Assembly (NCBI GenBank): GCA_964230605.1
Contig: CAXRIN010000046.1
Span: forward strand, 11,793 to 75,792
Direction of reading: 5' to 3'
Source: Flavobacteriaceae bacterium
Lineage (GTDB): Bacteria; Bacteroidota; Bacteroidia; Flavobacteriales_C; GCA-002722245
DNA: 64,000 bases
A program made the translations under genes and the position numbers. The notes under the pieces were generated by a model that ran no database searches, was not told the DNA's origin, and saw only the letters and a list, made by a program, of their open reading frames with translations. Positions 30,322 to 64,000 of the stretch are shown here, one piece after another (position 1 is the first letter of the stretch; every line of letters starts with the position of its first letter).

Positions 30322-30336
30322 TGAGATCAAAAAAGT

Positions 30337-32326: not shown

Positions 32327-32332
32327 AAGATT

Positions 32333-36925: not shown

Positions 36926-37789
36926 ATGTCGGAATCCAAGTGGACTGAAATTATTTTCCCAAAGAGGTCTTTAGGAGCACTAAATTTAAAAGAGTTATTT
37001 AAGTATAAGGATCTTATTTTACTTTTTGTAAAGAGGGATTTTGTAGCTTATTATAAACAAACAATTTTAGGTCCATTTTGGTATTTACTTCAACCAATAA
37101 TTCAAACAGTTATATATGCTTTAACTTTTGGAGCTGTATTTAATGTTAAAGAAGGTACGAGTATACCTTCGTTTTTATTTTTCTTGTCGGGAAATGTTAT
37201 GTGGTGGTATTTTGCTCAAAGTTTAGTGAAAACATCGAATACTTTTACTGAAAATGCTCATATATTCGGTAAGGTTTATTTTCCTAGGTTAACAGTTCCT
37301 GTGTCTGTTTTGATATCTAATATGATAGGGTTTGGAATCCAGTTTTCATTATTTATTGTAGCGTATCTGTTCTTTATTTTTGGAAAAGGAATGGATTTTT
37401 ATCCAAGTATTAAAGGGTTGTTATTTTTTCCCATAATTATTCTTAATATGGCAATATTAGGACTTGGATTAGGTTTGATAATATCTTCGTTAACAACAAA
37501 GTATAAGGATTTTAAACATTTTGTAGGATTTGGAGTACAGTTATTGATGTTTGCGTCTCCTGTAATATTTCCTTTACAAGTAGCTGAAAGTAAGTTTGGA
37601 GCGTTTGCTAAATTGATCCAATATAATCCGATGACACCAATTATTAGAAGTTTCAGAGCTTCGTTTTTTCCTGATTTTGTATTTAATTACGAGGATTTAC
37701 TGTACAGTGGAATATGTGCGGTAGTATTTTTCTTATTTGGCGCCTTTTTGTTCAATAAGACGGAGCAAAACTTTATGGATACGGTATAA
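36926..37789 (+). CDS. ABC-2 type polysaccharide export permease (Wzm/KpsM/NodJ-like)
   Basis: 287 aa. 6 TM segments with the ABC-2 arrangement. Immediately followed by the Wzt ATPase. Confidence 0.8.
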   Translation: MSESKWTEIIFPKRSLGALNLKELFKYKDLILLFVKRDFVAYYKQTILGPFWYLLQPIIQTVIYALTFGAVFNVKEGTSIPSFLFFLSGNVMWWYFAQSLVKTSNTFTENAHIFGKVYFPRLTVPVSVLISNMIGFGIQFSLFIVAYLFFIFGKGMDFYPSIKGLLFFPIIILNMAILGLGLGLIISSLTTKYKDFKHFVGFGVQLLMFASPVIFPLQVAESKFGAFAKLIQYNPMTPIIRSFRASFFPDFVFNYEDLLYSGICAVVFFLFGAFLFNKTEQNFMDTV

Positions 37790-37790
37790 T

Positions 37791-42140: not shown

Positions 42141-43052
42141 ATGAAGTCATTATTTATTATAGGATGCCCGAGGAGTGGAACAACATACCTTTTAAGGTTG
42201 TTGGCTTCAAATCAAGAGTTTGCCTGGATAACAAATGAATTAAATAACAATCCTAAAGAATACAATCTATCTAGTCGATTAAATAAATATTCGGGGTCTT
42301 TTTGGAGAAAAAAGCGCTATTTAAACCATGGACAAGGCTCTGGAAAATATCCTTTTTCAGTTGAGCCATGGAAATTTTGGAATACTCATTTTGAGTATTT
42401 TCAATGGAATAAAGGTTTTTCTGATGTACCTGTAAATGCTTTGCCAGAGCATAATTCCCCGAAAGTTATACAAGATGTTCGTAACGGTGTTGAAGAGATA
42501 TTAAAGCACTCAGGAAGACATGCCTTTCTAAGTAAATATACTGATTTCCCAAGGGTTAAATTACTTTTGGAAGCCTTTCCAGAAGCAAAGTTTATCCATC
42601 TGGTAAGAGACGGTAGAGCTGTAGCGAATTCATATTATAAAAAAATTAAATCAGGTGAATTTAATACTTCAAAAGAAGAGTCTAATTGGGTTTCTGCTTG
42701 GCCGAAAGATTGGCAAGAAGAGTATCAAAGCATTGATAATAAGCTTTTAGCTTTTACTTTATATCAATGGAAGTTTTTTGTGGATCAGATTATAGAGGAG
42801 TTAAAAGAAGTAGAGCAGGAAAGAGTATTAGAAGTAAGATATTCAGATTTAGTAAGTGGTACGAGAAAAACTGTGGAGAGGATCATGGACTTCATAGATT
42901 TACCAATTGATAAGTCGATGGATTTCTTTATAGATCATCTTCCTGGGCATGATATGAATTATAAATGGAAAGAGAAATTGTCTGAGGATGAAAAATCTCT
43001 TTATAACTTTATACTTAGAGAAGAAAGATTTATACAATTTTTGGACAATTAA
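42141..43052 (+). CDS. sulfotransferase-family protein (PAPS-dependent, P-loop 5'-PSB + 3'-PB motifs)
   Basis: 5'-PSB-like GCPRSGTTYL. 3'-PB-like HLVRDGRAVANS. 303 aa, cytoplasmic. Confidence 0.6.
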   Translation: MKSLFIIGCPRSGTTYLLRLLASNQEFAWITNELNNNPKEYNLSSRLNKYSGSFWRKKRYLNHGQGSGKYPFSVEPWKFWNTHFEYFQWNKGFSDVPVNALPEHNSPKVIQDVRNGVEEILKHSGRHAFLSKYTDFPRVKLLLEAFPEAKFIHLVRDGRAVANSYYKKIKSGEFNTSKEESNWVSAWPKDWQEEYQSIDNKLLAFTLYQWKFFVDQIIEELKEVEQERVLEVRYSDLVSGTRKTVERIMDFIDLPIDKSMDFFIDHLPGHDMNYKWKEKLSEDEKSLYNFILREERFIQFLDN

Positions 43053-46147: not shown

Positions 46148-47095
46148 ATGGAGGTATATGTTGAATTCCCGGAAACTACATTAACCAATGCTATTTTGGA
46201 AGAATGCTACGCTGAAATAGATTTCAAAAGAATAGAAAAAAAATTGGGAATTATTTCAAGAAGAGTAGTGAAGGATGAAACGGCCCTAGATTTAGCTTTG
46301 GAAGCTTGTAGGGAGATAGATAGAGCCGATCTTGGTGAAATAGATTTTGTAATTTATTGTACTCAGTCGCCAGAATACTTTTTGCCATCAACGGCTTGTA
46401 TAATACAAACAAAATTAGGTTTGAAGGATAGTTGTGGTGCTTTCGATTATAATTTAGGATGTTCAGGTTATATATATGGTTTAGCGATGGCTAAGTCGTT
46501 TATTATAAGCGGAGTTGCTTCTAAGGTACTTTTGGTTACTGCAGAGACATATACTAAATATATTCATCCTTCAGATTGGTCAAATCGAGCTATTTTTGGA
46601 GATGCTGCAACTGCATCTGTAATAGGGAAAGATGATATTGATAAAATAGGGGAATTTGATTTAGGAACAGATGGAAAAGGTGCAGAGAACCTAATTATTA
46701 AAGGGGGAGCAGGAAAAGCCAATTTTCATCAGAATTTTGAAAGAGAAAATTGCTTTTATATGAATGGTTCTGAAGTATTTAAATTTACTTTGGAGAATGT
46801 ACCTATAACAGTGAATGAATGTTTAAAGAAAAATAACAAATCAATAGATGATATTGATTTTGTGATTTTTCATCAGGCAAATGCTTACATGCTGAAGAAT
46901 TTAAGAAAGAAAATAAGTGTCCCAGAGGACAAATTTTATGTAAATGTTGAAACAGTAGGAAATACTGTATCTAACACCATTCCTGTAGCTTTGAAGGATT
47001 CACAGGATAGAGGTTTGATAAAGTCTGGCGATTGTGTACTTTTGTGTGGATTTGGAGTAGGTTACTCTTGGGGGACAACAATAATTACAATATAA
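46148..47095 (+). CDS. 3-oxoacyl-ACP synthase III (FabH-like KAS III), dedicated copy
   Basis: Active-site Cys in YNLGCSGYIYGL, His in VIFHQAN, Asn in VGNTVSNT. 315 aa. Confidence 0.8.
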   Translation: MEVYVEFPETTLTNAILEECYAEIDFKRIEKKLGIISRRVVKDETALDLALEACREIDRADLGEIDFVIYCTQSPEYFLPSTACIIQTKLGLKDSCGAFDYNLGCSGYIYGLAMAKSFIISGVASKVLLVTAETYTKYIHPSDWSNRAIFGDAATASVIGKDDIDKIGEFDLGTDGKGAENLIIKGGAGKANFHQNFERENCFYMNGSEVFKFTLENVPITVNECLKKNNKSIDDIDFVIFHQANAYMLKNLRKKISVPEDKFYVNVETVGNTVSNTIPVALKDSQDRGLIKSGDCVLLCGFGVGYSWGTTIITI

Positions 47096-47098
47096 CAC

Positions 47099-47335
47099 AT
47101 GAATAAAGAATCATTTTTCAAGGAGATAGAAGAACTATTAGAGTTAGAAGGTGAATTAGAAACAAACGCTGATACTAGTATTGAAGATATACTAGAAATT
47201 GATTCTTTAGCACATATTACACTTATTTCCTTTGTTAAGGATGAAATAGGAGTGGAGCTAAAAGCTGAAGACTTTTCTGAATTTGAAACTCTTGCTGATT
47301 TGGTAAGCAAAATAGGTGAGGATAAATTCAATTAA
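47099..47335 (+). CDS. acyl carrier protein
   Basis: 78 aa, acidic. Phosphopantetheine-attachment motif EIDSLAHI. Confidence 0.8.
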   Translation: MNKESFFKEIEELLELEGELETNADTSIEDILEIDSLAHITLISFVKDEIGVELKAEDFSEFETLADLVSKIGEDKFN

Positions 47336-48090
47336 TGCTCAGTTTTACAAATCATAAAATTTTAATAACCGGAGCTTCATCGGGCTTAGGTAAAGCTGTG
47401 GCTGAATTATTAAATTCTTTAGGTGTTTATACCGTTTTATGCGGTAGAAATGAGGAGAAATTAAATAATATAAAAAACTTACTAAGTGCCCCTGAAAAAG
47501 CTAATGTTTTAGTGGTTGATTTTAATGATAACGTTTCGATTAAATCATTCTTAAAAGTTAGTGTTGAAAATTCTGGTAAGTTCACAGGGTTTGTTCATTG
47601 TGCTGGAGTTGATATTACTAAGCCATATAAATTACTTAAGGAGACCGATTTTAACTTATTATATAAATTAAATATTACAACCCCGTTTCAGTTATCTAAA
47701 GAGTTAGTGAATAAATCTTTTTTTAGTGAAAATGGAGGGAGCTTAATTTGGATGAGTTCGGTGATGGGGACTTTGGGACAGAAAGGGAAAATAGCATACA
47801 CAACAAATAAAGCAGCAGTTGAAGGATTAATTAAATCTTATGCTTTAGAGTTAGCTCCCAGAAAAATAAGAGTTAATAGTGTTGCTCCTGGAATTGTAGA
47901 AACACCATTAACAAAAGATTTATTTTCTAAGTTATCTCTTGAGAGAGTTCAGGAAATTAAAAATATGCACCCTTTAGGGTTTGGAGCACCAGGTGATGTA
48001 GCGAATTTAGTTGCTTTTCTTTTAAGTGATCAATCCAAATGGATCACAGGAACTACTCATTTTATCGATGGAGGATATCATATTCAATAA
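47335..48090 (+). CDS. SDR-family oxidoreductase (FabG-like 3-oxoacyl-ACP reductase)
   Basis: TGASSGLGKAVA cofactor motif. Catalytic YTTNK (YxxxK). TAATG overlaps with both neighbours. Confidence 0.8.
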   Translation: MLSFTNHKILITGASSGLGKAVAELLNSLGVYTVLCGRNEEKLNNIKNLLSAPEKANVLVVDFNDNVSIKSFLKVSVENSGKFTGFVHCAGVDITKPYKLLKETDFNLLYKLNITTPFQLSKELVNKSFFSENGGSLIWMSSVMGTLGQKGKIAYTTNKAAVEGLIKSYALELAPRKIRVNSVAPGIVETPLTKDLFSKLSLERVQEIKNMHPLGFGAPGDVANLVAFLLSDQSKWITGTTHFIDGGYHIQ

Positions 48091-49034
48091 TGGAGGGGTT
48101 TGATATTGTAAAACTTTCGGATGAACATTTTAAGTTGCTATTGCCTCTTTACAGCAAAGCGTTTGGTCAATCTATGGATGAACATGAACTGAGAACGAAG
48201 TTTGATACCTTAAAGATTTGTGGAGAAAAAAATGTAGGTTTTATAGCACTGAATGAAAAAGGTGAAGCTGCAGCTTTTTATGGTGTATTTCCTTGTTACG
48301 CTATTAAAGGTGATAATCAGGTTTTAATAGCACAGTCTGGTGATACTATGGTTGACGCAAAATACAGACGAAAGAAATTGTTTGTAAAGTTGGCGGAAAC
48401 AACTTTTGAGTATTGTAGAGCTAAAAATATTAAGGCTGTTTTCGGATTTCCGAATATATATTCATTTCCAAGTTTTGTTAAAAAGTTAAAGTGGACTCAT
48501 ATTCATAACATTGTTAGTTATCAGTTAAGAGTTAAGTGTTTACCTTTTATTCGTATTAGAAAACTTTTTAAGTTGAAAGAAGACTTTTTTCTTAACTATC
48601 AATTAAGGTATTTAAGGAGGCAGAGTAAAAAGGTTAAAGAATACCATTCCATAAATCAAAATATTTCGAATTATACTATTAATAAAAACAAACAATTTAT
48701 TGAGTATAAGGCCTACTTTGAGAAATACTTTCTGAATCTTTCCGGTGTAAATGTTTGGGTAAAACCTAATGCTATGTTTTTGCTGGTTGGGGATGTTGAA
48801 GATTGTGACGAAGTTACTTTTGTTGGCGTACTTGATGAGTTAAAAAAGATAGCTTTCAGATTAGGAATTCCGCATATTAGGATCCAAATGTCACCTGAGA
48901 CAAAGTTGGAGACTATGGCTAAGAAGTATTTATATAAAATGGATAATGAATACCCTGCAGGTGGAATCTCCTTTGATAGTAACTTTAATATTCATGATTT
49001 ACGTTTTGTTTTAGCTGATTACGATACTTTCTAA
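48090..49034 (+). CDS. hypothetical protein, possibly GNAT/FemAB-like acyltransferase
   Basis: Start MEGFDIVKL (TAATG-coupled to the SDR stop). ~315 aa, consistent in size with Acetyltransf_6/FemAB-like folds. No unambiguous motif seen by eye. Assignment rests on context (ACP module upstream, NodB-type deacetylase downstream). Confidence 0.25.
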   Translation: MEGFDIVKLSDEHFKLLLPLYSKAFGQSMDEHELRTKFDTLKICGEKNVGFIALNEKGEAAAFYGVFPCYAIKGDNQVLIAQSGDTMVDAKYRRKKLFVKLAETTFEYCRAKNIKAVFGFPNIYSFPSFVKKLKWTHIHNIVSYQLRVKCLPFIRIRKLFKLKEDFFLNYQLRYLRRQSKKVKEYHSINQNISNYTINKNKQFIEYKAYFEKYFLNLSGVNVWVKPNAMFLLVGDVEDCDEVTFVGVLDELKKIAFRLGIPHIRIQMSPETKLETMAKKYLYKMDNEYPAGGISFDSNFNIHDLRFVLADYDTF

Positions 49035-50053
49035 TGTTACATAAAATCTTAATATCCCTTTTTTATCGTTTCCCTTTTCTAACTAAAAAAATTTTAAGAG
49101 GGAAAGGTTTTGTGTTTATGTTGCACCGAGTGCTACCTGCTGAAGAAAGGGGTTACGAATGGAATAAAAGTTTGGCGATTTCACCTGAAGCTTTAGAAAA
49201 ATGGGTGAGCTTTTTCAAACAAAAAGGGTTTGATGTTGTCTCTATGGATGAAGTTTACAGGCGAGTGAGGAGTAAGAAATCCAAGCCTTTTGTGGCATTT
49301 ACAATGGATGATGGGTACAAGGATAATTTGACTTATGGTTTGCCAATCCTTGAGAAGTTGAATATTCCTTGCACGATTTATGTTGCCAATTGCTTTCCCA
49401 ATAATCAAGCGATTTATTGGTGGTATTTTTTAGAAGAGTACATCAATGAGAATTCTAAAATAGACTTGACCCCACTTGGGATTAGTTATTCTTCCCACAT
49501 TAGTGATGAGAACAAAAAAAGCGTTTACGATGAGGTGAGAGAGTTATTGAGAAAGTCCACCTACGCGGTACATAAAAAATTTGCCCTTGAAATTTGTGGT
49601 ATCCAAGACCTCAATGCTTTGAACAATCGATTCAATTTGACTTGGGAGGAAGTACAGCAACTTTCGGAACACTCATTGATTACCATTGGTGGACATACTA
49701 AAAGTCATGTTAGTTTGGCAAATCAAACCAAAGAAAGCGCTAATACCGAAATCCAATTGGGAACAGAAGAATTGGAAAAAAAACTCAGTCAATCTATTCG
49801 CCACTTTGCTTATCCTTATGGTTCTTTAGATGATGTTAGTAATTCACTTTTCGACCCATTGGCGCAATCAGGCTACCAAACAGCTGTTTTAAACCATCCT
49901 GGAAGTATATTTTATGATGGCTCAAATCATCTTTTTCAAATTCCAAGAATGGGTTTATCGGATGAAACCTCTAGGGAAAGATTGAGTGAATTGATGGAAG
50001 GAAAACTTCATCTTAATTTCAATGGGGTTAAGAAGAGAATTATAAGTGGTTAA
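49034..50053 (+). CDS. polysaccharide deacetylase (NodB-homology, CE4) family protein
   Basis: Motif 1 FTMDDGYKDN (TFDDG-like), His motif GGHTKSH and further CE4-like spacing. 339 aa. Confidence 0.75.
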   Translation: MLHKILISLFYRFPFLTKKILRGKGFVFMLHRVLPAEERGYEWNKSLAISPEALEKWVSFFKQKGFDVVSMDEVYRRVRSKKSKPFVAFTMDDGYKDNLTYGLPILEKLNIPCTIYVANCFPNNQAIYWWYFLEEYINENSKIDLTPLGISYSSHISDENKKSVYDEVRELLRKSTYAVHKKFALEICGIQDLNALNNRFNLTWEEVQQLSEHSLITIGGHTKSHVSLANQTKESANTEIQLGTEELEKKLSQSIRHFAYPYGSLDDVSNSLFDPLAQSGYQTAVLNHPGSIFYDGSNHLFQIPRMGLSDETSRERLSELMEGKLHLNFNGVKKRIISG

Positions 50054-52203: not shown

Positions 52204-53724
52204 ATGCTATTTAACTCTTTAAATTTTCTTGTGTTTTTCCCGGTGGTATTTTTGTTATACTGCTTGGTGAAACAAAAATATCGTTCGATTTTACTACTTA
52301 TCGCGAGTTATGGTTTTTACATGGCTTGGAATCCTGTTTTTATCTTTTTAATAGTATTCTCTACAATTGTTGATTATTTCACAGGAATTAAAATTTCAAG
52401 AGCTGAGACTAACAATAAAAAGAGAGTTTTTTTGGCGGTCAGTTTGATCTCTAATTTAGGTTTATTATTCTATTTTAAGTATTGGAATTTCTTTTTAGAT
52501 AATGTATACGAAATTTTAAATTTTTTTGAGATTTCCCACACAAAAGATCATTGGGAAATTATGCTTCCAGTTGGAATTTCATTTTATACGTTTCAGACCC
52601 TATCATATACAATTGATATTTACAAGGGGAATCTTAATCCTCAAAAACACTTTGGGAAATTTGCTTTATTTGTTTCCTTTTTTCCACAATTGGTGGCTGG
52701 TCCTATTGAGAGGGCAACAAACTTAATTCCTCAACTAGAAAAGCTAACAATCATAAAAAAGGCTGATGTTGAGTTAGCAGTTTTCCAAATTGTATGGGGA
52801 TTCTTTTTAAAAATAGTTGTGGCTGATAACATAGGTATGTATGTTGATATTGCTTATGATAATTATGAGCATCTGTTTGGAGTGAAAATGTTATTACCTG
52901 TAATTCTATTTTCTTTTCAGATTTTCGCGGATTTTGCAGGTTATTCTTGTATCGCAATTGGAATTGCAATGTTTTTTGGGGTGAGATTAATGGATAATTT
53001 TAAATCTCCATATTTTTCCCGTTCAATTTCTGAGTTTTGGTCCAGGTGGCATATATCTTTAAGTACTTGGTTTAAAGATTACTTATATATTCCATTGGGA
53101 GGGAATAAAAGAGGTTCTTATCGTACTTTGCTAAATCTATTTGTTGTATTTATTGTTAGTGGAGTATGGCACGGGAGCAATTGGACTTTTGTAATATGGG
53201 GAGCAATTCATGGTGTTGTAATATGTCTCGAAAGGGTTTTGCCATTGAAAATAGATCCAAAAATTGATATTTTTCATAAGTTTTATAAATCTATTAAGAC
53301 CATTTGGGTATTTGCTCTCGTAACCCTTTCATGGTTATTTTTTAGGGCTGACTCTGTCGAACAAGCTTTAGCAATATTCATTAGTATTAAGAAAAATTTT
53401 GTTTTGACAATAAAGGACTTCGCCTGGATTGTTAAATCTAGTTTTACAACTGAAGATTATAGGGTTTTAAGTGTTTTCGAATGGCTGGTTAAAGATTTTG
53501 AAAAAGGTGAAATAACCAATTCTAATTTTGTCTTATTCAGTATTACAATTGGCGTTTTTTTAACTAACATTATGGAATTTATTAATAGAAACAAAGGGGC
53601 CGTTTATTTTGTAGAGAAAGTGGGGCGAATTAAAAAGGTTGCTTGGGTTTCTGTATTGATAATGGCTATTTTTTATTTAGGTCAGTATTCAGGGAATGAT
53701 CAATTTATTTATTTTCAATTCTGA
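52204..53724 (+). CDS. MBOAT-family membrane-bound O-acyltransferase (AlgI/DltB/PatA-like)
   Basis: 506 aa polytopic. Conserved MBOAT region FWSRWHISLSTWFKDYLYIPLGGNKRG with the catalytic His. Confidence 0.85.
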   Translation: MLFNSLNFLVFFPVVFLLYCLVKQKYRSILLLIASYGFYMAWNPVFIFLIVFSTIVDYFTGIKISRAETNNKKRVFLAVSLISNLGLLFYFKYWNFFLDNVYEILNFFEISHTKDHWEIMLPVGISFYTFQTLSYTIDIYKGNLNPQKHFGKFALFVSFFPQLVAGPIERATNLIPQLEKLTIIKKADVELAVFQIVWGFFLKIVVADNIGMYVDIAYDNYEHLFGVKMLLPVILFSFQIFADFAGYSCIAIGIAMFFGVRLMDNFKSPYFSRSISEFWSRWHISLSTWFKDYLYIPLGGNKRGSYRTLLNLFVVFIVSGVWHGSNWTFVIWGAIHGVVICLERVLPLKIDPKIDIFHKFYKSIKTIWVFALVTLSWLFFRADSVEQALAIFISIKKNFVLTIKDFAWIVKSSFTTEDYRVLSVFEWLVKDFEKGEITNSNFVLFSITIGVFLTNIMEFINRNKGAVYFVEKVGRIKKVAWVSVLIMAIFYLGQYSGNDQFIYFQF

Positions 53725-54662
53725 TGAAAAAGATAATTGTCACATACCTCATACTTCCAATTGTTTCTCTATTGATTTTCTCTTTGGTGCTCACCAGGTT
53801 TGATTCTCCTTCTAATGACTTTCTAAAAGGGATTGAGTTAAAGGAGAAAATTGCAGAAAAAGCTATTGGGCCTAAGATTATTTTAGCGGGTGGGTCCAAC
53901 TTAGCTTTTGGAATTAAATCATCAATAATTAAAGAAACTACTAATAAAGAGGTTGTAAATCTTGGAATAATGGCTGGATTGGGGGTTTCTTTTATGTCCA
54001 ATCAATTTATGGAATATGTTTCCCCAGGAGATTTAGTTGTTTTTGTCCCTGAATACACATTGTACTTTGCACCAAAGATTGAAGGTTTAAATCCTGTTAT
54101 TTTAAGTGCGGTTTATTCCTACCCTCCATCTGCCAGACATGTTGATGATTTGAATTTCATTAAACATGAACACTTTAAATTCCAATCTAGGTTTCAAAGA
54201 TTGATACAGAGTTTTTCAACTGTTCCATCTAGTAAAATTTATAGATATGAGTCCTTCGATGAAAACGGGGAAGTTAAAATAAATCATAAATCAAAAGTTT
54301 CTTTAGAGGATTTTAAAAATTATAATTTCCCAATTGATTCAAATAAAATTAATAATGAAAATTTTGAAGACTTTATTAATTACATGAAAAAGGTTAAGTC
54401 TAGGGTTGAAAATAAGGGGGCATCTTTAGTACTTAGTTATCCTCCAGGAAAAAAGGATTTTAATTTTCAAAAATCTGTTTTATTACTTAAGGAAGTTTTA
54501 AACAATAATGGATTTGAGTATTTAGGTAAACCAAGTGAGTTTGCCTTTGGTCATGACATGTTTTTTGATGATATTCCCCATTTAACTCAAAAGGGTGCAG
54601 AATTGAGAACTATAAAACTAGCCAATATTTTAAAAAAATATTTCAATGGAAAAGTTGATTAG
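53724..54662 (+). CDS. membrane-anchored extracytoplasmic partner of the MBOAT enzyme (AlgJ/DltD/PatB-like, SGNH-type?)
   Basis: Start overlaps the MBOAT stop by 1 nt. Single N-terminal TM. LAGGSNLAFG resembles an SGNH block-I region. Inference mainly from the conserved MBOAT+partner gene pairing. Confidence 0.35.
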   Translation: MKKIIVTYLILPIVSLLIFSLVLTRFDSPSNDFLKGIELKEKIAEKAIGPKIILAGGSNLAFGIKSSIIKETTNKEVVNLGIMAGLGVSFMSNQFMEYVSPGDLVVFVPEYTLYFAPKIEGLNPVILSAVYSYPPSARHVDDLNFIKHEHFKFQSRFQRLIQSFSTVPSSKIYRYESFDENGEVKINHKSKVSLEDFKNYNFPIDSNKINNENFEDFINYMKKVKSRVENKGASLVLSYPPGKKDFNFQKSVLLLKEVLNNNGFEYLGKPSEFAFGHDMFFDDIPHLTQKGAELRTIKLANILKKYFNGKVD

Positions 54663-55689: not shown

Positions 55690-55764
55690 GCTTTTTGTTA
55701 TAAAAAGTGTAAGTCTTCAAACAAATTTGAACTTTTAGGTTAAAAAAATAAGATAGACTTTGTT

Positions 55765-56769
55765 CTAATTTAAAGCTAATTTTCGATTCATTTTTCTCCT
55801 TGCTTCCAAGGTTTTGTATTTAGCTGATTTTCTTTTGTTTAAAATCTTCTTGTCGTTTCCATAAAAAACATCTGCTGGTGTTAAATTTCTAATGGATTCG
55901 TGGTATCGTTCATTGTTGTAATAATTCACAAACTCTTCCATTTTGGCTTCTAACTGACCGGGAGAAAAGTAATTATCGAGCTTTACTACATTTTTCATCG
56001 ACCTGTGATAACGTTCTATTTTACCCTGTGTTTGCGGATGTAATGGTCGACCTCTAACATGTTTTATTTCCATTTCGGATAAATACTTTTCAAGGTCTTT
56101 AGAGATGTAACAAGAACCGTTATCTGACAGTAATTTTGGACGATTTTCAGTAAGTCCAGTTTTAGCTAAAGCTTCATCGATTGTGTCCTGAACATCGCCA
56201 GCCTTCATAGTTGAGCATAACTTCCAGTTCACGATATACCTGCTGTAATCATCTAAAATAGTTGACAAGTAATACCAGCCCCAACCAAAGATTTTGAAGT
56301 AGGTAAAATCGGTTTGCCACATTTGGTTTGGACCTGAAGTTTTATCATAAAACTGATCCGAAGCACTCATCACCATAAAGAAAGGTGTTGTGATTAAACC
56401 ATTCTCTTTCAGGATTCTGTAAACGCTTGATTCACTGATGTAATAATTATACTTATCAGTAATATTCTAAGCCAGTTCCCGAGGAGATAACTCAGGGTTT
56501 TCTAGTGATATTTCAACTACTTTATCTCGATCAGCTTGAGCTATTTTATTCCAAGCTGGTTTCTTGTTGGATTTCTTTCGAGCAAGCCCTTCATAACCAT
56601 TTTCGGAGTATGCTTTGTACCAGTTGTAGAACGTGGTTTTATTTACCTTCAGCTGCTTTAAAGTTCTGCTTACTCCTAAGTCTGAACCCTCTACCAATCG
56701 AATGATTTCCATTTTTTGTGATTGAGAATAATGCATATACTTCTTTCTTTTTAAGCATCCCCATTCCAC
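55765..56769 (-). pseudogene. IS3-family transposase OrfB (DDE integrase core) interrupted by an in-frame TAG at 56467..56469
   Basis: The ORFs 56467..56769 and 55765..56376 are in the same frame. Translation reads ...PELSPRELA-[TAG]-NITDKYNYYISESSVYRILKENGLITTPFFMVMSASDQ... DDE residues are present downstream (WQTDFTY, LSDNGSCY, NERYHESI). Confidence 0.7.
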
Positions 56770-57098
56770 TTTTTTTTAAGTTGCCTTACTTCTAGAAACA
56801 ACTCAGCTACCGTGGATTTTAAATCGTGATTCTCGTTCTTTAAGTCCTGAACTTCTGATGTGTTAGCCTCCCGAAGCGTATCGCCCTTTAATCGAGCTTT
56901 ACCTGCTTCCATAAAGTCTTTGGTCCACTTGTAGTAATTAGCCTGAGAGATGCCTTCTCTTCGGCATAGTTCGGCTACAGTTGTTTCTCCACGCATACCT
57001 TCAATGATGATGCGGATCTTTTCTTCTGAAGAATACGTTTTTCTTGTTTTTCGCTTCAACTCACTGATCAGTGAGTTTGTACTTTGTTTTTTACTCAT
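56751..57098 (-). CDS. IS3-family transposase OrfA (HTH)
   Basis: 115 aa. HTH region LCRREGISQANYYKWTKDF. Leucine-zipper-like C-terminus. Ends 3' of the A-AAA-AAG slippery site. Confidence 0.8.
   Translation of the reverse strand: MSKKQSTNSLISELKRKTRKTYSSEEKIRIIIEGMRGETTVAELCRREGISQANYYKWTKDFMEAGKARLKGDTLREANTSEVQDLKNENHDLKSTVAELFLEVRQLKKKWNGDA
56769..56777 (-). other. programmed -1 ribosomal frameshift site (A AAA AAG heptamer within an A8G run) joining orfA to orfB
   Basis: Minus-strand sequence CTT AAA AAA AAG TGG in the orfA frame. The orfB frame is -1 relative to orfA and open from this run. Canonical IS3-family motif. Confidence 0.6.
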
Positions 57099-57269
57099 AA
57101 TAGAGATATTTAAGTGTTAAAATAATTAATAATCTCTATCTTAATTTCCTAAGTAAAAAAGTTCACTTTATGCTGACGGTTTACAATAAAAAGCAAGATT
57201 ACTTGATTCAAAGAAGTTAGAGAGATACTAATAATAATTAGTTCCTTCCTTACGGAGAATGTGAAATTA

Positions 57270-58880
57270 TCACAGTTTATTAGTAGTTTTTTGTTTCGAT
57301 AATAAGAAGCCTAATTTAAAGGGAATCCTTTTTATTACTAGACTTAATAATAATGTACTTATAAAAAAGAAACTATAATATACAGATAGGTTGTATCTGT
57401 ATTCTGCTGTTCTAAGAATAATAATATATAATCCAATGTGGTATAAAGTAGAGATAGTGAGGAAAAAGAACACCGAATTTTTCTTTTTAAATAAACTTCT
57501 AATGAGCTCAAAAAGGTAATAAACCGAACCTAATAATCCCAATATGATAATTATTTGATAAGTAAGAAAAGATATAATTTTAATACCAATTTGTGGTAAT
57601 GTTGCATTCTCTAAAGAGAATGGAAGCTGGTAGGTTCCACTGTTAAATAGCCAAGCTTTAAAAGTTTTAATTCTACCGATAATTTGATAATAAAACCAGT
57701 GATGTTGAGTTAAGTTTTTATAAAACTTATCAGTTATTTTTAAGGCTACTTCTAAGCTTTTTTTTCTTTCGGATAAATCAATGTTTTTATTCCTTGCTAT
57801 CTTAGAATTTCTTTGACATTCAACAAGTAATTCTGGCGTTAACCCTTTTTCATTGTCGTAAATTATTTCAGGAAATAAAGATGATTGATTTTGTGGCTTA
57901 AAGCCTAATTCATGTTGGTAATCATCATCCATAAACCAATACATTTGCCCTTCTGGGTCCCACTTGTTTGATCTTCCTCCAAATCCTTTAATGAGTTTTT
58001 TTTGTTTTTCGAAAAGGGGAACAGTTGTAAAATTTGCTTCATGAATTACTCCAACTTTACCTGTTTTATGCTCACTGGAACCTATTTGTTGAATTAAAAT
58101 TATTTTGCCATCTGATGCAAAGTAATTTCTAGTAACCCATATGCTTTCAAAAACTGCACTGGTAAGTAAAAAAAATAAAAGCGCTTTAATCGCTGTTTTT
58201 CTTTCTTTGATAAATATCCATCCTGCAAAAAGAAATAGCAGAGGTAAAAAAACTATTCGGGCAAAAATGGCAAGAGCAAGAAATAGTCCTCCGAAAAAGA
58301 TACTCTTAATATGTTTGTGTTCTATATATTCATAAATGTGAACTAATGTTAGAGAGAAAAATGAGAAAGAAAGGCTTTCTGCGAGTTCAGGATGATTATT
58401 CCATATCGAGATATAGTTATCTGCTAAAAAGAGTAGTATTCCTATATAAAAAAAGCTAGGTCCAAATTTTTTGCTGAGGGTTTTCAATAATTTAAAAATG
58501 GAATAAGACATAAAAATGGATAATCCAATCATGTAAAAATTTAGCGCCCATTGATAGCTAAAAAACAGTCTGAAAAATAAATATCCAATTCCAACAATAG
58601 GAACTCTTGGGGCAACCATTTTTCCTTTAGCAAAGTACCAATCTCCGTTAGTATAAAAATTTTCAGCACATGTAATATAGCCTTCATCTCCCCATCCCTC
58701 TGATGGTAATTCAAAGAGTATTCCTTCTGAGAATTTTTCCGGGTTGTGAGAATAAGAAAAATATAAAAGTAATGAGACTTTTATTATAATAACTAGTGGA
58801 AGAATCCACCATTGTATTTTTAGATTTTTAAACATTTTTTGTACGGTTTCGCTGGAGGAAATACTTTTCGACTGTTTCAA
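57270..58880 (-). CDS. large polytopic membrane protein, possible GT-C-type (ArnT/PMT-like) glycosyltransferase
   Basis: 536 aa. N-terminal TM followed by a loop containing EGWGDEGY (a DE-type motif occupies the equivalent first loop in GT-C enzymes). ~9 TM helices, a ~250-aa hydrophilic domain, and 3 C-terminal TM helices. An alternative start at MFKNLKIQ (58835) would reduce the overlap with the upstream AT3 gene. Confidence 0.25.
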   Translation of the reverse strand: MKQSKSISSSETVQKMFKNLKIQWWILPLVIIIKVSLLLYFSYSHNPEKFSEGILFELPSEGWGDEGYITCAENFYTNGDWYFAKGKMVAPRVPIVGIGYLFFRLFFSYQWALNFYMIGLSIFMSYSIFKLLKTLSKKFGPSFFYIGILLFLADNYISIWNNHPELAESLSFSFFSLTLVHIYEYIEHKHIKSIFFGGLFLALAIFARIVFLPLLFLFAGWIFIKERKTAIKALLFFLLTSAVFESIWVTRNYFASDGKIILIQQIGSSEHKTGKVGVIHEANFTTVPLFEKQKKLIKGFGGRSNKWDPEGQMYWFMDDDYQHELGFKPQNQSSLFPEIIYDNEKGLTPELLVECQRNSKIARNKNIDLSERKKSLEVALKITDKFYKNLTQHHWFYYQIIGRIKTFKAWLFNSGTYQLPFSLENATLPQIGIKIISFLTYQIIIILGLLGSVYYLFELIRSLFKKKNSVFFFLTISTLYHIGLYIIILRTAEYRYNLSVYYSFFFISTLLLSLVIKRIPFKLGFLLSKQKTTNKL

Positions 58881-59910
58881 ATGAAATAGATGATAATATT
58901 AAAGTTCCTGCTAATATTAAAAAGTACTGTAGTGGGATATTTTTAATGTTTAATCCATGAATAACTAAAACAATAATTATAGAATGGTACATATACAAAC
59001 CATATGATATTTTCCCTAAATATTTAAGCCATTGGAACTCTAGTTTGATAATATTGTTAGAGTTAAAAGCTAAGTTGAAAATTAAGGGTCCTGTAAGTAA
59101 TGCATAAATTTCATTGTTAACGAATGGAATTTCAATTCCAAAAGCAATTAACAGAAAAAGAGTTGTAAAAGTAGTTAATTCAATTATAGGGTGAATTAAT
59201 TTTTTACCTAAGGAGTGATCCGTGAATTTTAGCCATGCAAATATTCCACCTATAGCAAAGCAATCCATATTAAGACCTGATATAAAGCTGTAAAGGATAT
59301 CAGATTTTAAAAATCCCATTTTCATAATTATATAAATCCCATATTTTACTCCAAAAAATATAATAGCTGCTAAAATTATATTCCTACTGGTATTCTTTAT
59401 TTTTTTAAAAATAAAGGGCCAAATAAGGTAAAATTGAGTTTCAACACCAATAGACCATAATTTTGAGGCATAAGGAAGTCCGTAATATAAAATGAGTGAA
59501 AGGTTAGGAAGAAAAAAAGTGAATAAACTAAGCTGTTTACCATATTCGTTAATTTGGTAATTGTTATAGTTAAAAATACTTAGGTATGGAAGTACAAAAA
59601 AGGAAAGGGTAATAATAATAAAATATAGAGGCCAAATTCGATTTATTCTTTTTTGAAAGAAACGCTTTAAGTTTATTCTTTCTTGTTTTTGTAGTTCAGC
59701 TAAGAGTAAGTAACTAATTAAAAAGCCACTTAAAACAAAAAAGATAACAACACCTGTTTTTCCACATCTTTTAAAAAATCCTAAATCATAGAAGTTATCA
59801 ATCCCCATATTGTATTTAATGTTTTCTGTATGGTGGACTATAACTAGATATGCTGCAATAAACCTTAAGCCATCAAGATTAGGGAAGTGTAATTTTTGTT
59901 TCTGAGGCAT
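58828..59910 (-). CDS. acyltransferase family 3 (integral membrane O-acyltransferase), second copy
   Basis: N-terminal FPNLDGLRFIAAYLVIVHHT motif. 360 aa polytopic. Confidence 0.75.
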   Translation of the reverse strand: MPQKQKLHFPNLDGLRFIAAYLVIVHHTENIKYNMGIDNFYDLGFFKRCGKTGVVIFFVLSGFLISYLLLAELQKQERINLKRFFQKRINRIWPLYFIIITLSFFVLPYLSIFNYNNYQINEYGKQLSLFTFFLPNLSLILYYGLPYASKLWSIGVETQFYLIWPFIFKKIKNTSRNIILAAIIFFGVKYGIYIIMKMGFLKSDILYSFISGLNMDCFAIGGIFAWLKFTDHSLGKKLIHPIIELTTFTTLFLLIAFGIEIPFVNNEIYALLTGPLIFNLAFNSNNIIKLEFQWLKYLGKISYGLYMYHSIIIVLVIHGLNIKNIPLQYFLILAGTLILSSISFETVEKYFLQRNRTKNV

Positions 59911-61062
59911 TTATTTCTGTTCCGCTTTGTTGTTAAAGAAGTAGTTAACATTTGTTACAACATATTCTATTTCTTCCTGCGTCATAGATGGAAATAGTGG
60001 TAGTCTTACTAAACAATCAGAAAATTCATCTGCTATTTTTAATTCTTCTACTTCATTATTCATGGAAAAGAACTCGCTTTTATGTAAGGATAAATAGTGG
60101 AATACAGCTATAATAGATTTTTCTTTTAAAAATTGTAGTAATATGTCTCTTTGATGTATATCCTTACAACAAAAATAGAAAATATGGTAATTATTAGTAG
60201 AGTGTTCAGGGATTTCCATGAAATTCACTCCGGCCTTTTGCATTGCCTTTTTGTCAATGTTTTGGTCATAATATTCCCATATATTTTTTCTTTTTCCTAG
60301 AATGTCTTCAATATGGCGTAATTGTGCGTATAAAAATGCTGATGTTAATTCAGAAGGTAAAAAAGAACTTCCTATATCTACCCATCCATATTTATTTACT
60401 TCTCCTCTGTAAAAAGCCGCTCTATTTGTCCCTTTTTCCCAAATAATTTCAGCTCTTTTCATCATTTCTTTATTATTAATAACTAGTAGTCCTCCTTCTC
60501 CTGAGATGATGTTTTTCGTTTCGTGAAAGGAAAAAGTAGATAAGTCGCCAAAAGATCCAAGAGGTTTGTCTTTAAAATAAGTATTAATGGATTGAGCTGC
60601 GTCTTCAACCAAGTATATATTATTCTCTTTACAATAATCCGCTATTTTATCAATTTCATATCCTAGCCCGGCATAATGAACGACAACAATAACTTTTGTT
60701 TTAGATGTTTTTAATCTTTTTATTTCTTTCAGTGAAATATTAGGGAATTGTTTGTCAGAGTCTGCAAAAACAATTTTTGCTCCTCTTAAAACAAAAGGAT
60801 TAGCAGAACTAACAAATGTGAAAGATGGTATAATGATTTCATCGCCTGGACCAACATTAGTAAGGATACTAGCCATTTCCAGAGCATCGGTACAACTTGA
60901 TGTTAAAAGACAATGTTTAAACCCGTACTTTGTTTTTAAAAAATTATGACATTCTTTGGTGAAAAAACCATTCCCTGAAAGCTGTTTTTTTACATTAACA
61001 GCTTCTTCTATAAATTTTGTTTCTTCTCCAGTTAAATAAGGTCTGTTAAATGCGACATGCAT
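59911..61062 (-). CDS. DegT/DnrJ/EryC1/StrS-family PLP-dependent sugar aminotransferase (WecE/ArnB-like)
   Basis: N-terminal FNRPYLTGEE. 383 aa. Family-typical Lys region (..SFHETKNII..). Confidence 0.85.
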   Translation of the reverse strand: MHVAFNRPYLTGEETKFIEEAVNVKKQLSGNGFFTKECHNFLKTKYGFKHCLLTSSCTDALEMASILTNVGPGDEIIIPSFTFVSSANPFVLRGAKIVFADSDKQFPNISLKEIKRLKTSKTKVIVVVHYAGLGYEIDKIADYCKENNIYLVEDAAQSINTYFKDKPLGSFGDLSTFSFHETKNIISGEGGLLVINNKEMMKRAEIIWEKGTNRAAFYRGEVNKYGWVDIGSSFLPSELTSAFLYAQLRHIEDILGKRKNIWEYYDQNIDKKAMQKAGVNFMEIPEHSTNNYHIFYFCCKDIHQRDILLQFLKEKSIIAVFHYLSLHKSEFFSMNNEVEELKIADEFSDCLVRLPLFPSMTQEEIEYVVTNVNYFFNNKAEQK

Positions 61063-61197
61063 ATTGAATGATATTAATGGCGAGTGAATTTAATTCCTTC
61101 AAGTTCAACACTAAATTAAAAACTAAAGTAAGGTTAATTTTTTACTATACATTACTAGTTTTAGATTATTTAGTGAAGTTTTTAGGCGTGAATTTAA

Positions 61198-61539
61198 CTA
61201 TAAAGTCATTGTTATAATTCCAAGTATTATTAAAGTAAGCCCTATGAGTTGCTTCTTATTTAATTTCTCTTTCAAAAAGAAATAACTTCCTATAACTACA
61301 AAAAGATTACTAAGAGAGTTAAAAGAGAATGCTATTCCTAACGGTAGTTGAGTAAGAGCATATGTATATAGTAATATACCTATGATTGTTACTGTGATTA
61401 CAAGTATAAAAGAAGGTTTTTTTAAGGTGTTAAATATTGCTTTTATTGAAGAGAAATCTAATTCTTGAGAAATACTCTTAAGTAAAATTTGACCAAAGGA
61501 AACTAATACAGACATTAATATAAGTGATATATATGCCAT
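61198..61539 (-). CDS. small 4-TM DMT/SMR-like protein (ArnE-like undecaprenyl-phosphate-aminosugar flippase subunit?)
   Basis: 113 aa with four hydrophobic helices. 1-nt overlap with the upstream paralogue. Pairing and size match ArnE/ArnF. Confidence 0.5.
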   Translation of the reverse strand: MAYISLILMSVLVSFGQILLKSISQELDFSSIKAIFNTLKKPSFILVITVTIIGILLYTYALTQLPLGIAFSFNSLSNLFVVIGSYFFLKEKLNKKQLIGLTLIILGIITMTL

Positions 61540-61865
61540 TATTTTTTTGCTAAAAATAAAACTCCAATACCTATAAGTAAACCTCCTGTAACTTTAGTGA
61601 AAGTTAAGGTTTCATCAAAAAGTATACTGGACAATATAAGAATTAAAACAAAATTTAAACTCAGAAAAGGGTATGCAATTGAAAGGGATACTTTTTTTAA
61701 TACGTTTGCCCATATTAAAGTCCTTATACCAAAAAGGCCAATAGCGGATATTGTGAATATATTAAAAAGGTTTCCTTCTTTTACTTCAAATGAGCCAAAT
61801 TTAGATATTACTTGAGTTAAGGCCATTAAGCCAATGGTGAAAAGTAATAATTTAAACCCTTTCAT
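61539..61865 (-). CDS. small 4-TM DMT/SMR-like protein (ArnF-like partner subunit?)
   Basis: 108 aa with four hydrophobic helices. Tandem with 61198..61539. Confidence 0.5.
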   Translation of the reverse strand: MKGFKLLLFTIGLMALTQVISKFGSFEVKEGNLFNIFTISAIGLFGIRTLIWANVLKKVSLSIAYPFLSLNFVLILILSSILFDETLTFTKVTGGLLIGIGVLFLAKK

Positions 61866-62739
61866 TTTCTTTTTTACTAGGATTTAGAATCGTTGAAGAA
61901 TTTTTGAAAAGGTTGTTAATGTAATTATAGTCTCTTTGGTAATAACTCTTAATTTCATCAAATTCATTTACTTTATGAGAGACAGGTTCATTGTTTTTTA
62001 TGTTTTTAGCTGATAAATAATCAAACTTTTTTCTTGCCCAAACTACAAAATTACGAGGAAGTAATTGGAGTAGTTTTATTAACCACATTTGCCTTAATAT
62101 CCTGTTTAAGAAGTTGTTTTTCTTTCTTAAACTTGAATTTATCTTTGATTTAATAATGTTTTCTTCATTAAAATAAATAGGGACTTCCAAAAAACGTTCA
62201 ATTTCATTTAAACTATGAAGGATGTTATGATGAAAGTCTTCGTACTTCATAAGTAGAAGATTGTATCCGAAAAGGTCTATTATTTCCTGAATTCTTTTTT
62301 CAAAGTCACCAGGTTGAAAATGAAAGCTTACTTCCACAGAATCTTCTATAAATGTATAACCGTTTTTATAATAACTATTTAATGTAGGCATTGCAATATC
62401 GTAACCAGACAATTGTTTATAAAGGGAAATTGTCCAATCTGCTGGTTCCCTGATGACTAGGATTATTTTTTGTCCGGCATAATTACTTTTGAAAGCTTCA
62501 AAAGATTCATCATCAACAAAAGAAATTGTATCGGTGTCAACGCAAACTTGTTCATCAGTAGCATTGTTAAAATGATCGAGAAACCATTGATCTCCTTTTG
62601 ATAAGTGCGCTTTAAAATAATTGGTTTTTCTTCTGAATGGTACAAAGATATTCGGATGTTTATCAAAGGAATGATACAAATAGGTCGTTGCTGCTCTTGG
62701 CATACCGAGCAAAAAATGAATTTCTGACTTTGTTTTCAT
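61852..62739 (-). CDS. sulfotransferase-like protein (second copy in window)
   Basis: 5'-PSB-like LGMPRAATTYLY and 3'-PB-like VIREPADW motifs. 295 aa. Confidence 0.4.
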   Translation of the reverse strand: MKTKSEIHFLLGMPRAATTYLYHSFDKHPNIFVPFRRKTNYFKAHLSKGDQWFLDHFNNATDEQVCVDTDTISFVDDESFEAFKSNYAGQKIILVIREPADWTISLYKQLSGYDIAMPTLNSYYKNGYTFIEDSVEVSFHFQPGDFEKRIQEIIDLFGYNLLLMKYEDFHHNILHSLNEIERFLEVPIYFNEENIIKSKINSSLRKKNNFLNRILRQMWLIKLLQLLPRNFVVWARKKFDYLSAKNIKNNEPVSHKVNEFDEIKSYYQRDYNYINNLFKNSSTILNPSKKENERV

Positions 62740-62787
62740 AAGATAAATCGAAGGGGCAAATATCGGATTTATATATTAAGGACAAAA

Positions 62788-64000
62788 TTAGGAGTCAGGA
62801 TTTTTTTTAAATGTTAGAGATAATAATAGGAAAGTGAAAAATGGCAGATAAGGAATTTTGTACCTAACAAGAGCTCCGAAATTGGAAGTGCTTAACCCAA
62901 CTCCAAATCCGAGAATAATAGTAAATAGGAAACAAAAAATAAAGAAAGGATCTTGCCTTATGGATTTTATAAGGCTTAGAGATTTTGATAAGATAACCCA
63001 TATTGCAATAAGAAGAAGAAGTAGATTTTCAATACCCGAAACCCACATTGTTGGTGAGCCAGACTCCCAAACATATGGCCTGAAAAGAGCAGCGTTAACT
63101 GCTGGGAAAAATTTTGATAAAGCTCCTTGCATCGTAGGTTCAAAAGCTCCAATGTCAAATGAATTGGATCCGTAAACATCTCTTTTTAAATCGGCATTTT
63201 GAACAGCTGCTTCTTCAAATAGGTTATCTGCTGAATATTTTCCAAAAATCTCATCAAAGTCAAAAAATAAGGTGTTTCCTATGAAAAAAATCACGAAGGT
63301 CGATATAGGTAAAATAGTGATTCTAACAATGGTGGATTTAATTTTCTTTAATCGTTCGAAGTTCGCAAATATTAATAGCCCGGGAAGTAGGGCAAACATG
63401 ATATAAGCTTTAATTGTTATAATTAAGTAAAAAGCAAAAGTTAGTTGTAATGTTGTTTTTAATATTCTTTTCCGATCAATAAAGAATTGATGTAAACCAT
63501 AAACAGCATAGCAGGTTGCCCCAAAAGCAAAGGTATCTTTCATAATTCCACTTCCCCAAAATATTGTAGACGGCAGGTATAGTATGGCTATATTAATGGC
63601 TTTTTCTAAGTCTGGATAACGCTCTATTAGAAAGGAGTATAATTTCCATACCCAGCTGTATATAAAGGTTGTAAGTAAAATAGTAGTTGATAAGAAACCT
63701 CCAAGTGCAGGTAATGCAAAAACAGAACTAATTTTAATTACGGTATAGGTTCGTTCATCTCTTAGCATGTAGTTTGGAGGAGAGTTTCCTACATTGTAAT
63801 AAGCAGCTCTTGTAACTGTATCATTATCGTGAAATAAGAGTTCAAAATACTTAAAAGGGTTGTCTTTAAATACATCCATCATAGCATCAACCCCCCGATA
63901 ATAATTAACGGTATCTCCTCCTCCGTAATAAAGTGCGTAAATCAAACAAAAAATAACTCCTCCAAATATTTTGATTATAAGTCCTTTTCCAAAGTTTTTG
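62788..64000 (-). CDS. polytopic membrane protein, possible glycan polymerase (Wzy/EpsG-like); N-terminus beyond window edge
   Basis: The tracked ORF begins at a TTG. The frame remains open with no stop to nt 63999 (..KNFGKGLIIKIFGGVIFCL-IYALYY..), so the gene continues past the window. ~10 TM helices with a large loop. Confidence 0.3.
   Translation of the reverse strand, partial: KNFGKGLIIKIFGGVIFCLIYALYYGGGDTVNYYRGVDAMMDVFKDNPFKYFELLFHDNDTVTRAAYYNVGNSPPNYMLRDERTYTVIKISSVFALPALGGFLSTTILLTTFIYSWVWKLYSFLIERYPDLEKAINIAILYLPSTIFWGSGIMKDTFAFGATCYAVYGLHQFFIDRKRILKTTLQLTFAFYLIITIKAYIMFALLPGLLIFANFERLKKIKSTIVRITILPISTFVIFFIGNTLFFDFDEIFGKYSADNLFEEAAVQNADLKRDVYGSNSFDIGAFEPTMQGALSKFFPAVNAALFRPYVWESGSPTMWVSGIENLLLLLIAIWVILSKSLSLIKSIRQDPFFIFCFLFTIILGFGVGLSTSNFGALVRYKIPYLPFFTFLLLSLTFKKNPDS

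Follow-up and report, generated by a model that had tools for sequence, protein, structure and literature searches.

The minus-strand genes at positions 57270-64000 of a contig from a Flavobacteriaceae bacterium (CAXRIN010000046.1; the 64,000-nt stretch analyzed is referred to as the window, and all coordinates are positions in it) raise the question whether they serve the transfer of an amino sugar to lipid A, in the manner of the enterobacterial Arn proteins, or the decoration of an exported glycan in the periplasm. The region holds seven co-directional open reading frames (ORFs) with short or overlapping junctions, among them those of a 536-aa polytopic protein (p536), of two small membrane proteins (s113 and s108), of a DegT-family aminotransferase, of an AT3 acyltransferase and of a sulfotransferase. 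An initial annotation of the sequence had assigned these genes to an Arn/Gtr-like three-component module; all of its ORFs were recovered in place on the minus strand, with domain E-values far beyond chance. The third partner considered here is a glycosyltransferase of family GT2 encoded on the plus strand from position 31379 (GT2_31379; see Table 1).

With a confidence that is only somewhat better than even, the locus is interpreted as encoding a three-component system for post-export periplasmic glycan decoration (of the Gtr, Gml or Citrobacter youngae type) that employs a GT-C enzyme of an unclassified family. The three component types, i.e. polyprenyl-phosphate sugar synthase, small membrane flippase and GT-C enzyme, are all encoded in one glycan locus. 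On the cytoplasmic side of the membrane, GT2_31379 would attach a monosaccharide to polyprenyl phosphate; the translationally coupled, ArnE/ArnF-like EamA half-transporters would flip the lipid-linked sugar, and p536 would transfer it to the exported glycan at the periplasmic face (acceptance by the lipid A-core or by a protein appears less likely). The present data directly support the assignments to folds and families, the positions of conserved residues in agreement with the topology and the repeated occurrence of GT2 genes near p536 relatives; we infer that the donor lipid is used, that the small pair acts as a flippase and that the three parts work together, and likewise which acceptor and sugar are involved.

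Fold, family and conserved residues of p536

The length of 536 aa applies to a TTG start codon; the publicly annotated gene and the alignments with homologues speak for the ATG at 58835 as the probable true start, which would give a protein of 521 aa. In the searches made, p536 itself had no match in Pfam, NCBIfam or the sequences of the PDB (and a word-indexed homology search returned only the self-match), while members of its family did match. This family, as collected by an exhaustive HMMER scan, comprises 244 cluster representatives (at 50% identity), most of them 480-520 aa long and aligned end to end, the best being 34% identical to p536. Among 56 sampled members, 26 individually matched PMT_2 (best E 2.6e-7) and eight matched Glyco_transf_22 (best E 8.7e-9), both of which we take to be GT-C families in Pfam. 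The top PDB match of the family profile was ALG9, reached through the C-terminal E-x-R-Y/F block with an E-value of 0.02 only.

An AlphaFold2 (AF2) model of p536 was calculated from the family alignment (predicted local distance difference test score (pLDDT) 87.4; predicted template modelling score (pTM) 0.89) and compared with the PDB by Foldseek. ArnT ranked first, followed by STT3, PglB, AglB, PIG-U, DPY19, ALG9 and Pmt4; the top 15 matches were all GT-C proteins at a probability of 0.96 to 1.0 (1.0 for the first listed, ArnT, STT3, PglB and AglB), with E-values from 2e-3 and modest TM-scores of 0.31 to 0.46. The GT-C likeness of the 536-aa protein proposed in the initial annotation is thus borne out by the PMT_2 and Glyco_transf_22 matches of the family and by the structural ranking: p536 is very probably a GT-C-fold glycosyltransferase of an unclassified family, and its donor would be a polyprenyl-phosphate-linked sugar. 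An assignment as ArnT (GT83) orthologue was rejected, the likeness to ArnT being confined to the level of the fold; the hhalign comparison of E. coli ArnT with the p536 family was not significant (probability 0.3), and BLAST gave no match.

According to the model, p536 has 10 transmembrane (TM) helices; the loop that follows TM1 (residues 46-108) contains two helices (68-78 and 95-104), and an all-helical insert of about 170 aa, which would be periplasmic, is located between TM7 and TM8. The presence of PMT_2 matches in the family, the acidic motif in the first loop and the short loop helices are features shared with the PMT_2/GT-C(A) enzymes (ArnT and the bacterial PMT-like mannosyltransferases). 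Eukaryotic PMTs also bear a soluble domain between TM7 and TM8. The differences are that p536 itself remains below PMT_2 detection and that its insert is all-helical instead of a MIR beta-trefoil.

The family consensus after TM1 reads G-D-x-x-x-Y-x-x-P-x-E-N-L…R-M-P-G-Y. The loop aspartate of this motif is present in 51 of the 56 members and replaced by glutamate in one more; in the four-member clade of p536 itself, the sequence reads GWGDEGY, with the aspartate displaced by one position, and the acidic pair of the loop is formed by D65-E66. Of the DE motif that had been noted in the first loop, the aspartate is consequently a family feature, while the glutamate is conserved in only 13 of the 56 members. 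The hhalign path aligns D-E…Y…G-D-W of the p536 family with the first loop of ArnT, within the alignment that was not significant as a whole. Invariant residues of the family are R92, P94, W248 and G301, nearly invariant ones E168, R251, N252, E493 and R495; given the helices of the model and a cytoplasmic N-terminus, every conserved polar residue would be placed on the periplasmic face.

Candidate partners of p536

GT2_31379 matched the PgfS model (E 1.7e-51) and the ArnC model (E 1.2e-31) over the full length, in both cases below the equivalog cut-offs (on the ArnC model 110 bits versus a cut-off of 529, with the higher score for PgfS); its full-length alignment with E. coli ArnC showed 23% identity over 317 aa (E 1e-30). 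TM helices are located at about residues 240-258 and 273-291, in contrast to the other two GT2 proteins of the window, which have none. Two C-terminal TM helices are the architecture of polyprenyl-phosphate glycosyltransferases. In agreement with the initial annotation as GtrB/ArnC-like enzyme, GT2_31379 is therefore regarded as a candidate polyprenyl-phosphate sugar synthase, as judged from its sequence.

Co-occurrence of such enzymes with p536 relatives was judged on the further informative contexts L006, L007/L008 and L009 (L-numbers denote contigs with relatives of window genes): in all three of these independent contexts, a full-length ArnC/PgfS-like GT2 is encoded within 10 kb of the p536 relative. 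In the marine metagenome contigs L007 (5723-11542) and L008, an ArnC-like GT2, a short-chain dehydrogenase/reductase (SDR), a DegT, a DAO flavoprotein and the p536 relative are encoded in one direction and in close succession; the shorter contig L011 has this run from the SDR gene onward. The DegT of L007/L008 is PseC/ArnB-like and the flavoprotein L-2-hydroxyglutarate-oxidase-like; the run is more Arn-like than the arrangement in the window but contains no small flippase gene. The three-component gene logic of the initial annotation is upheld only in part by these comparisons: polyprenyl-phosphate GT2s recur near p536 relatives, but none of the other p536 contexts seen contains the EamA pair.

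The two small proteins, predicted as a tandem of about 110 aa each with a 1-nt overlap, were confirmed as such: the junction of their genes reads TAATG, and arnE and arnF of E. coli overlap likewise; in addition, the start of the s108 gene is overlapped by the sulfotransferase gene by 14 nt. Both proteins exceed the Pfam gathering score of EamA (see Table 1); at 26% identity to one another, they are distant paralogues. Four TM helices were found for s108; s113 displayed three hydrophobic peaks in the scan and aligned over its full length to the four-TM protein ArnE. The best NCBIfam match of s113 was ArnE (E 6e-8), those of s108 were ArnF (E 1e-10) and ArnE (E 2e-9), all below the respective cut-offs; BLAST matches of the pair to E. 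coli ArnE/ArnF ranged from 1.6e-7 to 2e-5 (to ArnE, 1.6e-7 for s108 and 4e-6 for s113). In the joint alignment, a G-Q motif in TM1 and a block in TM3 are common to s113, s108, ArnE and ArnF; the TM3 block reads IAYPFLSLNFV in s108 and IAYPMLSLNFV in ArnE (shared pattern IAYPxLSLNFV).

The most serious alternative to a joint action of these proteins is that the EamA pair has no part in the action of p536, the latter being either a protein O-glycosyltransferase similar to the PMTs or a GT-C enzyme with another acceptor, and that the pair is an unrelated exporter of the drug/metabolite transporter (DMT) or small multidrug resistance (SMR) type. The lack of the pair in every other p536 context, the PMT_2 matches of family members and the insertion of a soluble domain between TM7 and TM8, a layout resembling that of the PMTs, would agree with this interpretation, as would the marginal passing of the Pfam SMR cut-off by s113 (24.3 bits versus 23.7). 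However, the SMR drug-pump models of NCBIfam rank behind ArnE and ArnF for both proteins and score far below their own cut-offs. Proton coupling in SMR proteins requires a membrane-embedded glutamate in TM1 (E14 in EmrE). In s113 and s108, TM1 carries glutamine as in ArnE/ArnF and no acidic residue, and the two proteins are therefore unlikely to be proton-coupled SMR drug exporters. Moreover, the 14-nt and 1-nt overlaps couple the translation of the pair to that of glycan genes, and ArnC-type GT2s recur with the p536 relatives.

The nearest relative of s108 points the same way. A word-indexed homology search with s108 yielded a single non-self relative, P0123, whose gene directly follows that of a polyprenyl-phosphate hexose/HexNAc-type GT2; downstream of it are the genes of a 485-aa polytopic protein and of a GT-C of the MptA/B family. 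This neighbourhood, a single case of guilt by association, would agree with a flippase role of the pair. (The 485-aa membrane protein was considered as a p536 relative and rejected, as there is no detectable relationship.) An action of p536 independent of the pair is consequently held to be unlikely, and the description of the small proteins as ArnE/ArnF-like rather than SMR pumps is retained in view of the NCBIfam ranking, the BLAST matches and the TM1 and TM3 motifs, at scores below the equivalog level; s113 and s108 are candidate subunits of an ArnE/ArnF-like flippase.

Glycan decoration versus lipid A modification

Several observations weigh against the three-component reading. GT2_31379 is encoded 26 kb apart from the small pair and p536, on the opposite strand, and an IS3 element lies between them; p536 relatives are accompanied by the EamA pair in none of the other contexts, and a distant family member (on contig L014) is preceded by housekeeping genes. 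With 33 to 42 bits, s113 and s108 fall far short of the equivalog cut-offs of ArnE/ArnF (92 to 99), and the non-self contigs examined for the neighbours of an s108 relative numbered only two, near-identical to each other. Furthermore, p536 itself matches no Pfam GT-C model and is not significantly aligned to E. coli ArnT by hhalign, and neither acceptor nor donor can be deduced from the sequence.

The proposed arrangement has precedents. In C. youngae O1/O2, a Wzm/Wzt-exported O-antigen is decorated by a lipid-sugar synthase, a proposed flippase with four TM helices that resembles ArnE/EmrE, and a GT-C enzyme (PMC11127046, in which a three-component galactose-addition system of Klebsiella is cited as well). 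The window genes share with these two systems the Wzm/Wzt-dependent glycan, a polyprenyl-phosphate sugar synthase, a small four-TM candidate flippase of the ArnE/EmrE-like type and a periplasmic GT-C for decoration. The Klebsiella system is known as gmlABC. Differences concern the synthase (here an ArnC/GtrB-type GT2, there a phosphoribosyltransferase), the candidate flippase (here a two-gene pair of heterodimer type), the contiguity of the three genes, which is not given here, and the GT-C enzyme, as p536 apparently belongs to a different, unclassified family rather than to GT136. In the GtrABC systems of Shigella and Salmonella phages and in CsbB/GtcA/YfhO of Gram-positive bacteria, a GT2 makes the polyprenyl-phosphate sugar, a small protein flips it and a GT-C enzyme transfers it (PMC11127046, PMC8035078). 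The same three-step logic is proposed for the window genes, with the differences that the candidate flippase is EamA/ArnE-like, the Pfam scan having given no match to the GtrA family (PF04138), and that p536 is unrelated to GtrC and YfhO at the Pfam level.

A more elaborate version of the three-component reading, which appears rather improbable, would have the p536 family and the heterodimeric ArnE/F-type flippase transfer an unusual, pre-modified sugar from a polyprenyl-phosphate carrier onto the ABC-exported, sulfated polysaccharide; the sugar in question might be a sulfated or N-acylated 4-amino-4,6-dideoxyhexose supplied by the WecE-type aminotransferase and the coupled sulfotransferase (see below). 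If true, this would be the first case of sulfation on a lipid carrier before flipping.

The initial annotation had taken the module as one that modifies lipid A in the manner of the Arn pathway: an amino sugar formed by DegT would be loaded onto undecaprenyl phosphate, flipped by the small pair and transferred by p536, with the result of a lowered surface charge and resistance to cationic peptides such as polymyxin. Indeed, the ensemble resembles ArnBCADTEF of Enterobacteria in the ArnC-like GT2, in the overlapping pair with ArnE/ArnF as best family matches, in the ArnT-like fold of p536 (ArnT being its top structural match) and in the DegT-family aminotransferase; the DegT, AT3 and p536 genes are co-directional and tightly packed, and the compact run of GT2, SDR, DegT, DAO and p536 relative in L007/L008/L011 follows an Arn-like logic. 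In contrast, none of the components reaches an Arn equivalog cut-off and p536 lacks significant sequence similarity to ArnT. The aminotransferase passed NF008687 (dTDP-4-amino-4,6-dideoxygalactose transaminase, WecE-type) with 498.6 bits versus a cut-off of 375 and failed the ArnB model with 188 bits versus 631. While its DegT family membership was correctly recognized in the initial annotation, its ArnB type was not: by these profile scores, it is a WecE-type aminotransferase (dTDP-4-amino-4,6-dideoxyhexose). An orthologue with 62% identity is encoded near the p536 relative of L006. Neither the ArnA formyltransferase nor the deformylase ArnD was matched when the E. coli proteins were compared with all cluster proteins by BLAST and phmmer; the comparison yielded no more than a weak match (E 1e-7), over an SDR domain, with the epimerase encoded at 51067.

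The genomic context differs likewise: the Arn genes form an operon for lipid A modification, whereas the module of the window lies in a Wzm/Wzt polysaccharide locus that also encodes sulfotransferases and acyltransferases, and the p536 relatives, too, are found in polysaccharide loci. The minus-strand genes, convergent to the polysaccharide arm with wzm and wzt, are regarded as the distal arm of an ABC-transporter-dependent glycan locus and not as a stand-alone Arn-like operon; the locus is one for a Wzm/Wzt-dependent surface polysaccharide of a member of the Bacteroidota, probably of marine Flavobacteriales. A modification of lipid A of the Arn type is, in consequence, very unlikely, and there is no tie of the module to the lipid A/Arn polymyxin-resistance pathway.

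The WecE-type aminotransferase, the AT3 protein and the sulfotransferase are more simply explained as general enzymes of glycan building and decoration than as parts of an Arn-like amino-sugar branch. The AT3 acyltransferase, whose presence in the minus-strand set was predicted correctly, is encoded directly after the stop codon of the DegT gene and, as indicated by its Pfam match, probably catalyzes O-acetylation of the glycan. The sulfotransferase scored 34.6 bits versus a cut-off of 22 on PF00685 (E 1.7e-8) and also matched PF13469 (E 2e-7); it has no predicted TM helix and is for this reason placed in the cytoplasm. In the initial annotation its presence had been considered unexpected, which no longer holds for a locus of a sulfated glycan: another sulfotransferase is encoded at 42141 and a further one in the related locus L006, so that sulfation appears to be a property of the whole glycan.

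If the three-component reading is right, periplasmic glycan decoration of this kind, a mechanism already well established in Enterobacteria, mycobacteria and Firmicutes, would extend to marine Bacteroidota, with the addition of an unclassified GT-C family and of a paired, ArnE/F-type flippase outside of the Arn pathway. With no Pfam or NCBIfam model for its roughly 244 representatives (at 50% identity), the p536 family could be a GT-C family not classified before. The relevance lies mainly in the annotation of polysaccharide loci of marine Flavobacteriales, the sulfated surface glycans of which are poorly understood, and in the coverage of GT-C diversity by CAZy and Pfam; nothing points to a new resistance mechanism or to a new kind of system.

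The surrounding polysaccharide locus

The positions of the features discussed are compiled in Table 1. The window has a G+C content of about 32%, and one of its further products bears a sorting domain for type IX secretion; together with the Flavobacteriales/Bacteroidetes assemblies in which P0002 relatives occur, these features identify the host as a member of the Bacteroidota, probably one of the marine Flavobacteriales. Scans for Sigma-70 promoters, terminators and the Bacteroidota -7 motif remained at chance level and were uninformative with regard to transcription units.

Table 1. Positions of the features in the window and basis of their assignment (bit scores are given versus the Pfam gathering score).
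Feature	Position	Strand	Basis
p536, very probable GT-C-fold polytopic glycosyltransferase	57270-58880	-	family search, AF2 model, Foldseek
AT3 integral-membrane acyltransferase	58828-59910	-	PF01757, E 1.1e-32
DegT, WecE-type sugar aminotransferase (by profile scores)	59911-61062	-	PF01041, E 3e-78; NF008687
s113, EamA half-size protein, 113 aa	61198-61539	-	EamA, 47.2 bits vs 28.2
s108, EamA half-size protein, 108 aa	61539-61865	-	EamA, 33.5 bits vs 28.2
Sulfotransferase	61852-62739	-	PF00685, PF13469
P0002, C-terminal part of a 442-aa polytopic membrane protein	62788-64000	-	family search
ArnC/GtrB/PgfS-type GT2	31379-32326	+	PgfS and ArnC models, two C-terminal TM helices
Wzm/Wzt ABC exporter	36926-39083	+	ABC2_membrane, ABC_tran and Wzt_C matches
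IS3-family insertion sequence	55733-57159	-	rve and HTH_Tnp_1 matches

The plus strand between 31379 and 55689 is occupied by a large polysaccharide locus. Its first part (31379-36801) encodes GT2_31379, a PhyH dioxygenase, an uncharacterised protein, a GH130-like protein, an amidohydrolase and an ATP-grasp protein; a GH130-like gene (32% identical to that of the window) also directly adjoins the ArnC-like GT2 gene of L006 (19094-20955). Wzm and Wzt follow, then GT4s, AsnB, the first sulfotransferase (at 42141) and GT2s; further downstream are a block for FabH, an acyl carrier protein (ACP), an SDR, a GNAT protein and a polysaccharide deacetylase, an epimerase, an MBOAT protein with its 312-aa partner, and an AT3 protein. 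With this gene content, the glycan appears to be heavily decorated, i.e. sulfated, O-acylated and amidated, with N-acylated amino sugars.

The Wzm/Wzt exporter defines the pathway of the main glycan. Wzt (within 37737-39083, plus strand) bears a Wzt_C carbohydrate-binding domain at its C-terminus, and in the systems studied such a domain goes together with a chain-terminating modification (PMC11127046). A WbdD-like terminator was not identified in the locus; the sulfotransferase encoded at 42141-43052 (plus strand) is a candidate for the formation of a terminal sulfate cap.

The FabH/ACP/SDR/GNAT/deacetylase block (46148-50053, plus strand; the ACP has 78 aa) suggests a module by which an amino sugar in the main chain is N-acylated. 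FabH, GNAT and deacetylase have counterparts (34-60% identity) in the Flavobacteriales polysaccharide locus L001, in which they are adjoined by a 75-aa ACP. At 52204-54662 (plus strand), the MBOAT gene is followed by that of the 312-aa protein, which has no Pfam match and an N-terminal hydrophobic segment. An MBOAT gene (39% identical) together with a gene for a no-Pfam protein of about 308 aa is likewise located directly downstream of the p536 relative in L009 (2057-4396) and in L010; no mutual similarity of the approximately 310-aa partners of the window and of L009/L010 was detected by BLAST at E 1e-5. MBOAT and partner may form a periplasmic O-acylation pair of the AlgI/AlgJ or PatA/PatB type.

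The IS3 element separates the plus-strand arm from the convergent minus-strand arm. It has imperfect inverted repeats of 32 nt and an in-frame stop codon within orfB, so that its transposase would probably be inactive unless the stop codon is a sequencing error. That the locus is a mosaic, i.e. that unrelated glycan genes, some of them perhaps inactive, were gathered at a variable site by recombination or IS activity, is highly improbable: the IS3 remnant abutting the minus-strand arm, the widely varying gene content around p536 relatives and the very few close relatives of p536 and the small pair would fit such an origin, but the seven ORFs are intact, co-directional and joined by short or overlapping junctions, and p536 is aligned over its full length to its homologues and retains all conserved residues.

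At the distal end of the minus-strand set, the ORF of 385 aa (62788-63945) that had been noted as polymerase-like is present but not whole: it represents the C-terminal part of the 442-aa protein P0002, the start of which is beyond the end of the window. The P0002 family comprises 2326 homologues and is rich in assemblies of Flavobacteriales/Bacteroidetes; in an alignment of 41 members, 43 columns are invariant, a G-G-D-T-x-N-Y block among them. Nine of these 41 weakly matched DUF2142, which is the only Pfam model matched. The AF2 model (pLDDT 87) had no significant Foldseek match in the PDB, nor had the family profile a PDB sequence match; a relationship to the p536 family was rejected, as both families were unrelated by hhalign. 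In another genome, a relative of P0002 (73% identical) is encoded among GT4s, AsnB and the FabH/GNAT/deacetylase block, in this case without EamA pair and DegT. P0002 might act as a polymerase-like enzyme or represent a further GT-C-like one.

At its other end, the polysaccharide locus of the window is bordered by the menaquinone genes menF, menD and menA (27627-31230, plus strand). A p536 relative is located between menD and menF in L006 (8291-12634), a linkage to men genes is also listed for L012 (9649-12001), and the arn operon of E. coli likewise borders men genes (menE, menC and menB). This adjacency is probably a coincidence or the sign of a shared variable hotspot in Flavobacteriales.

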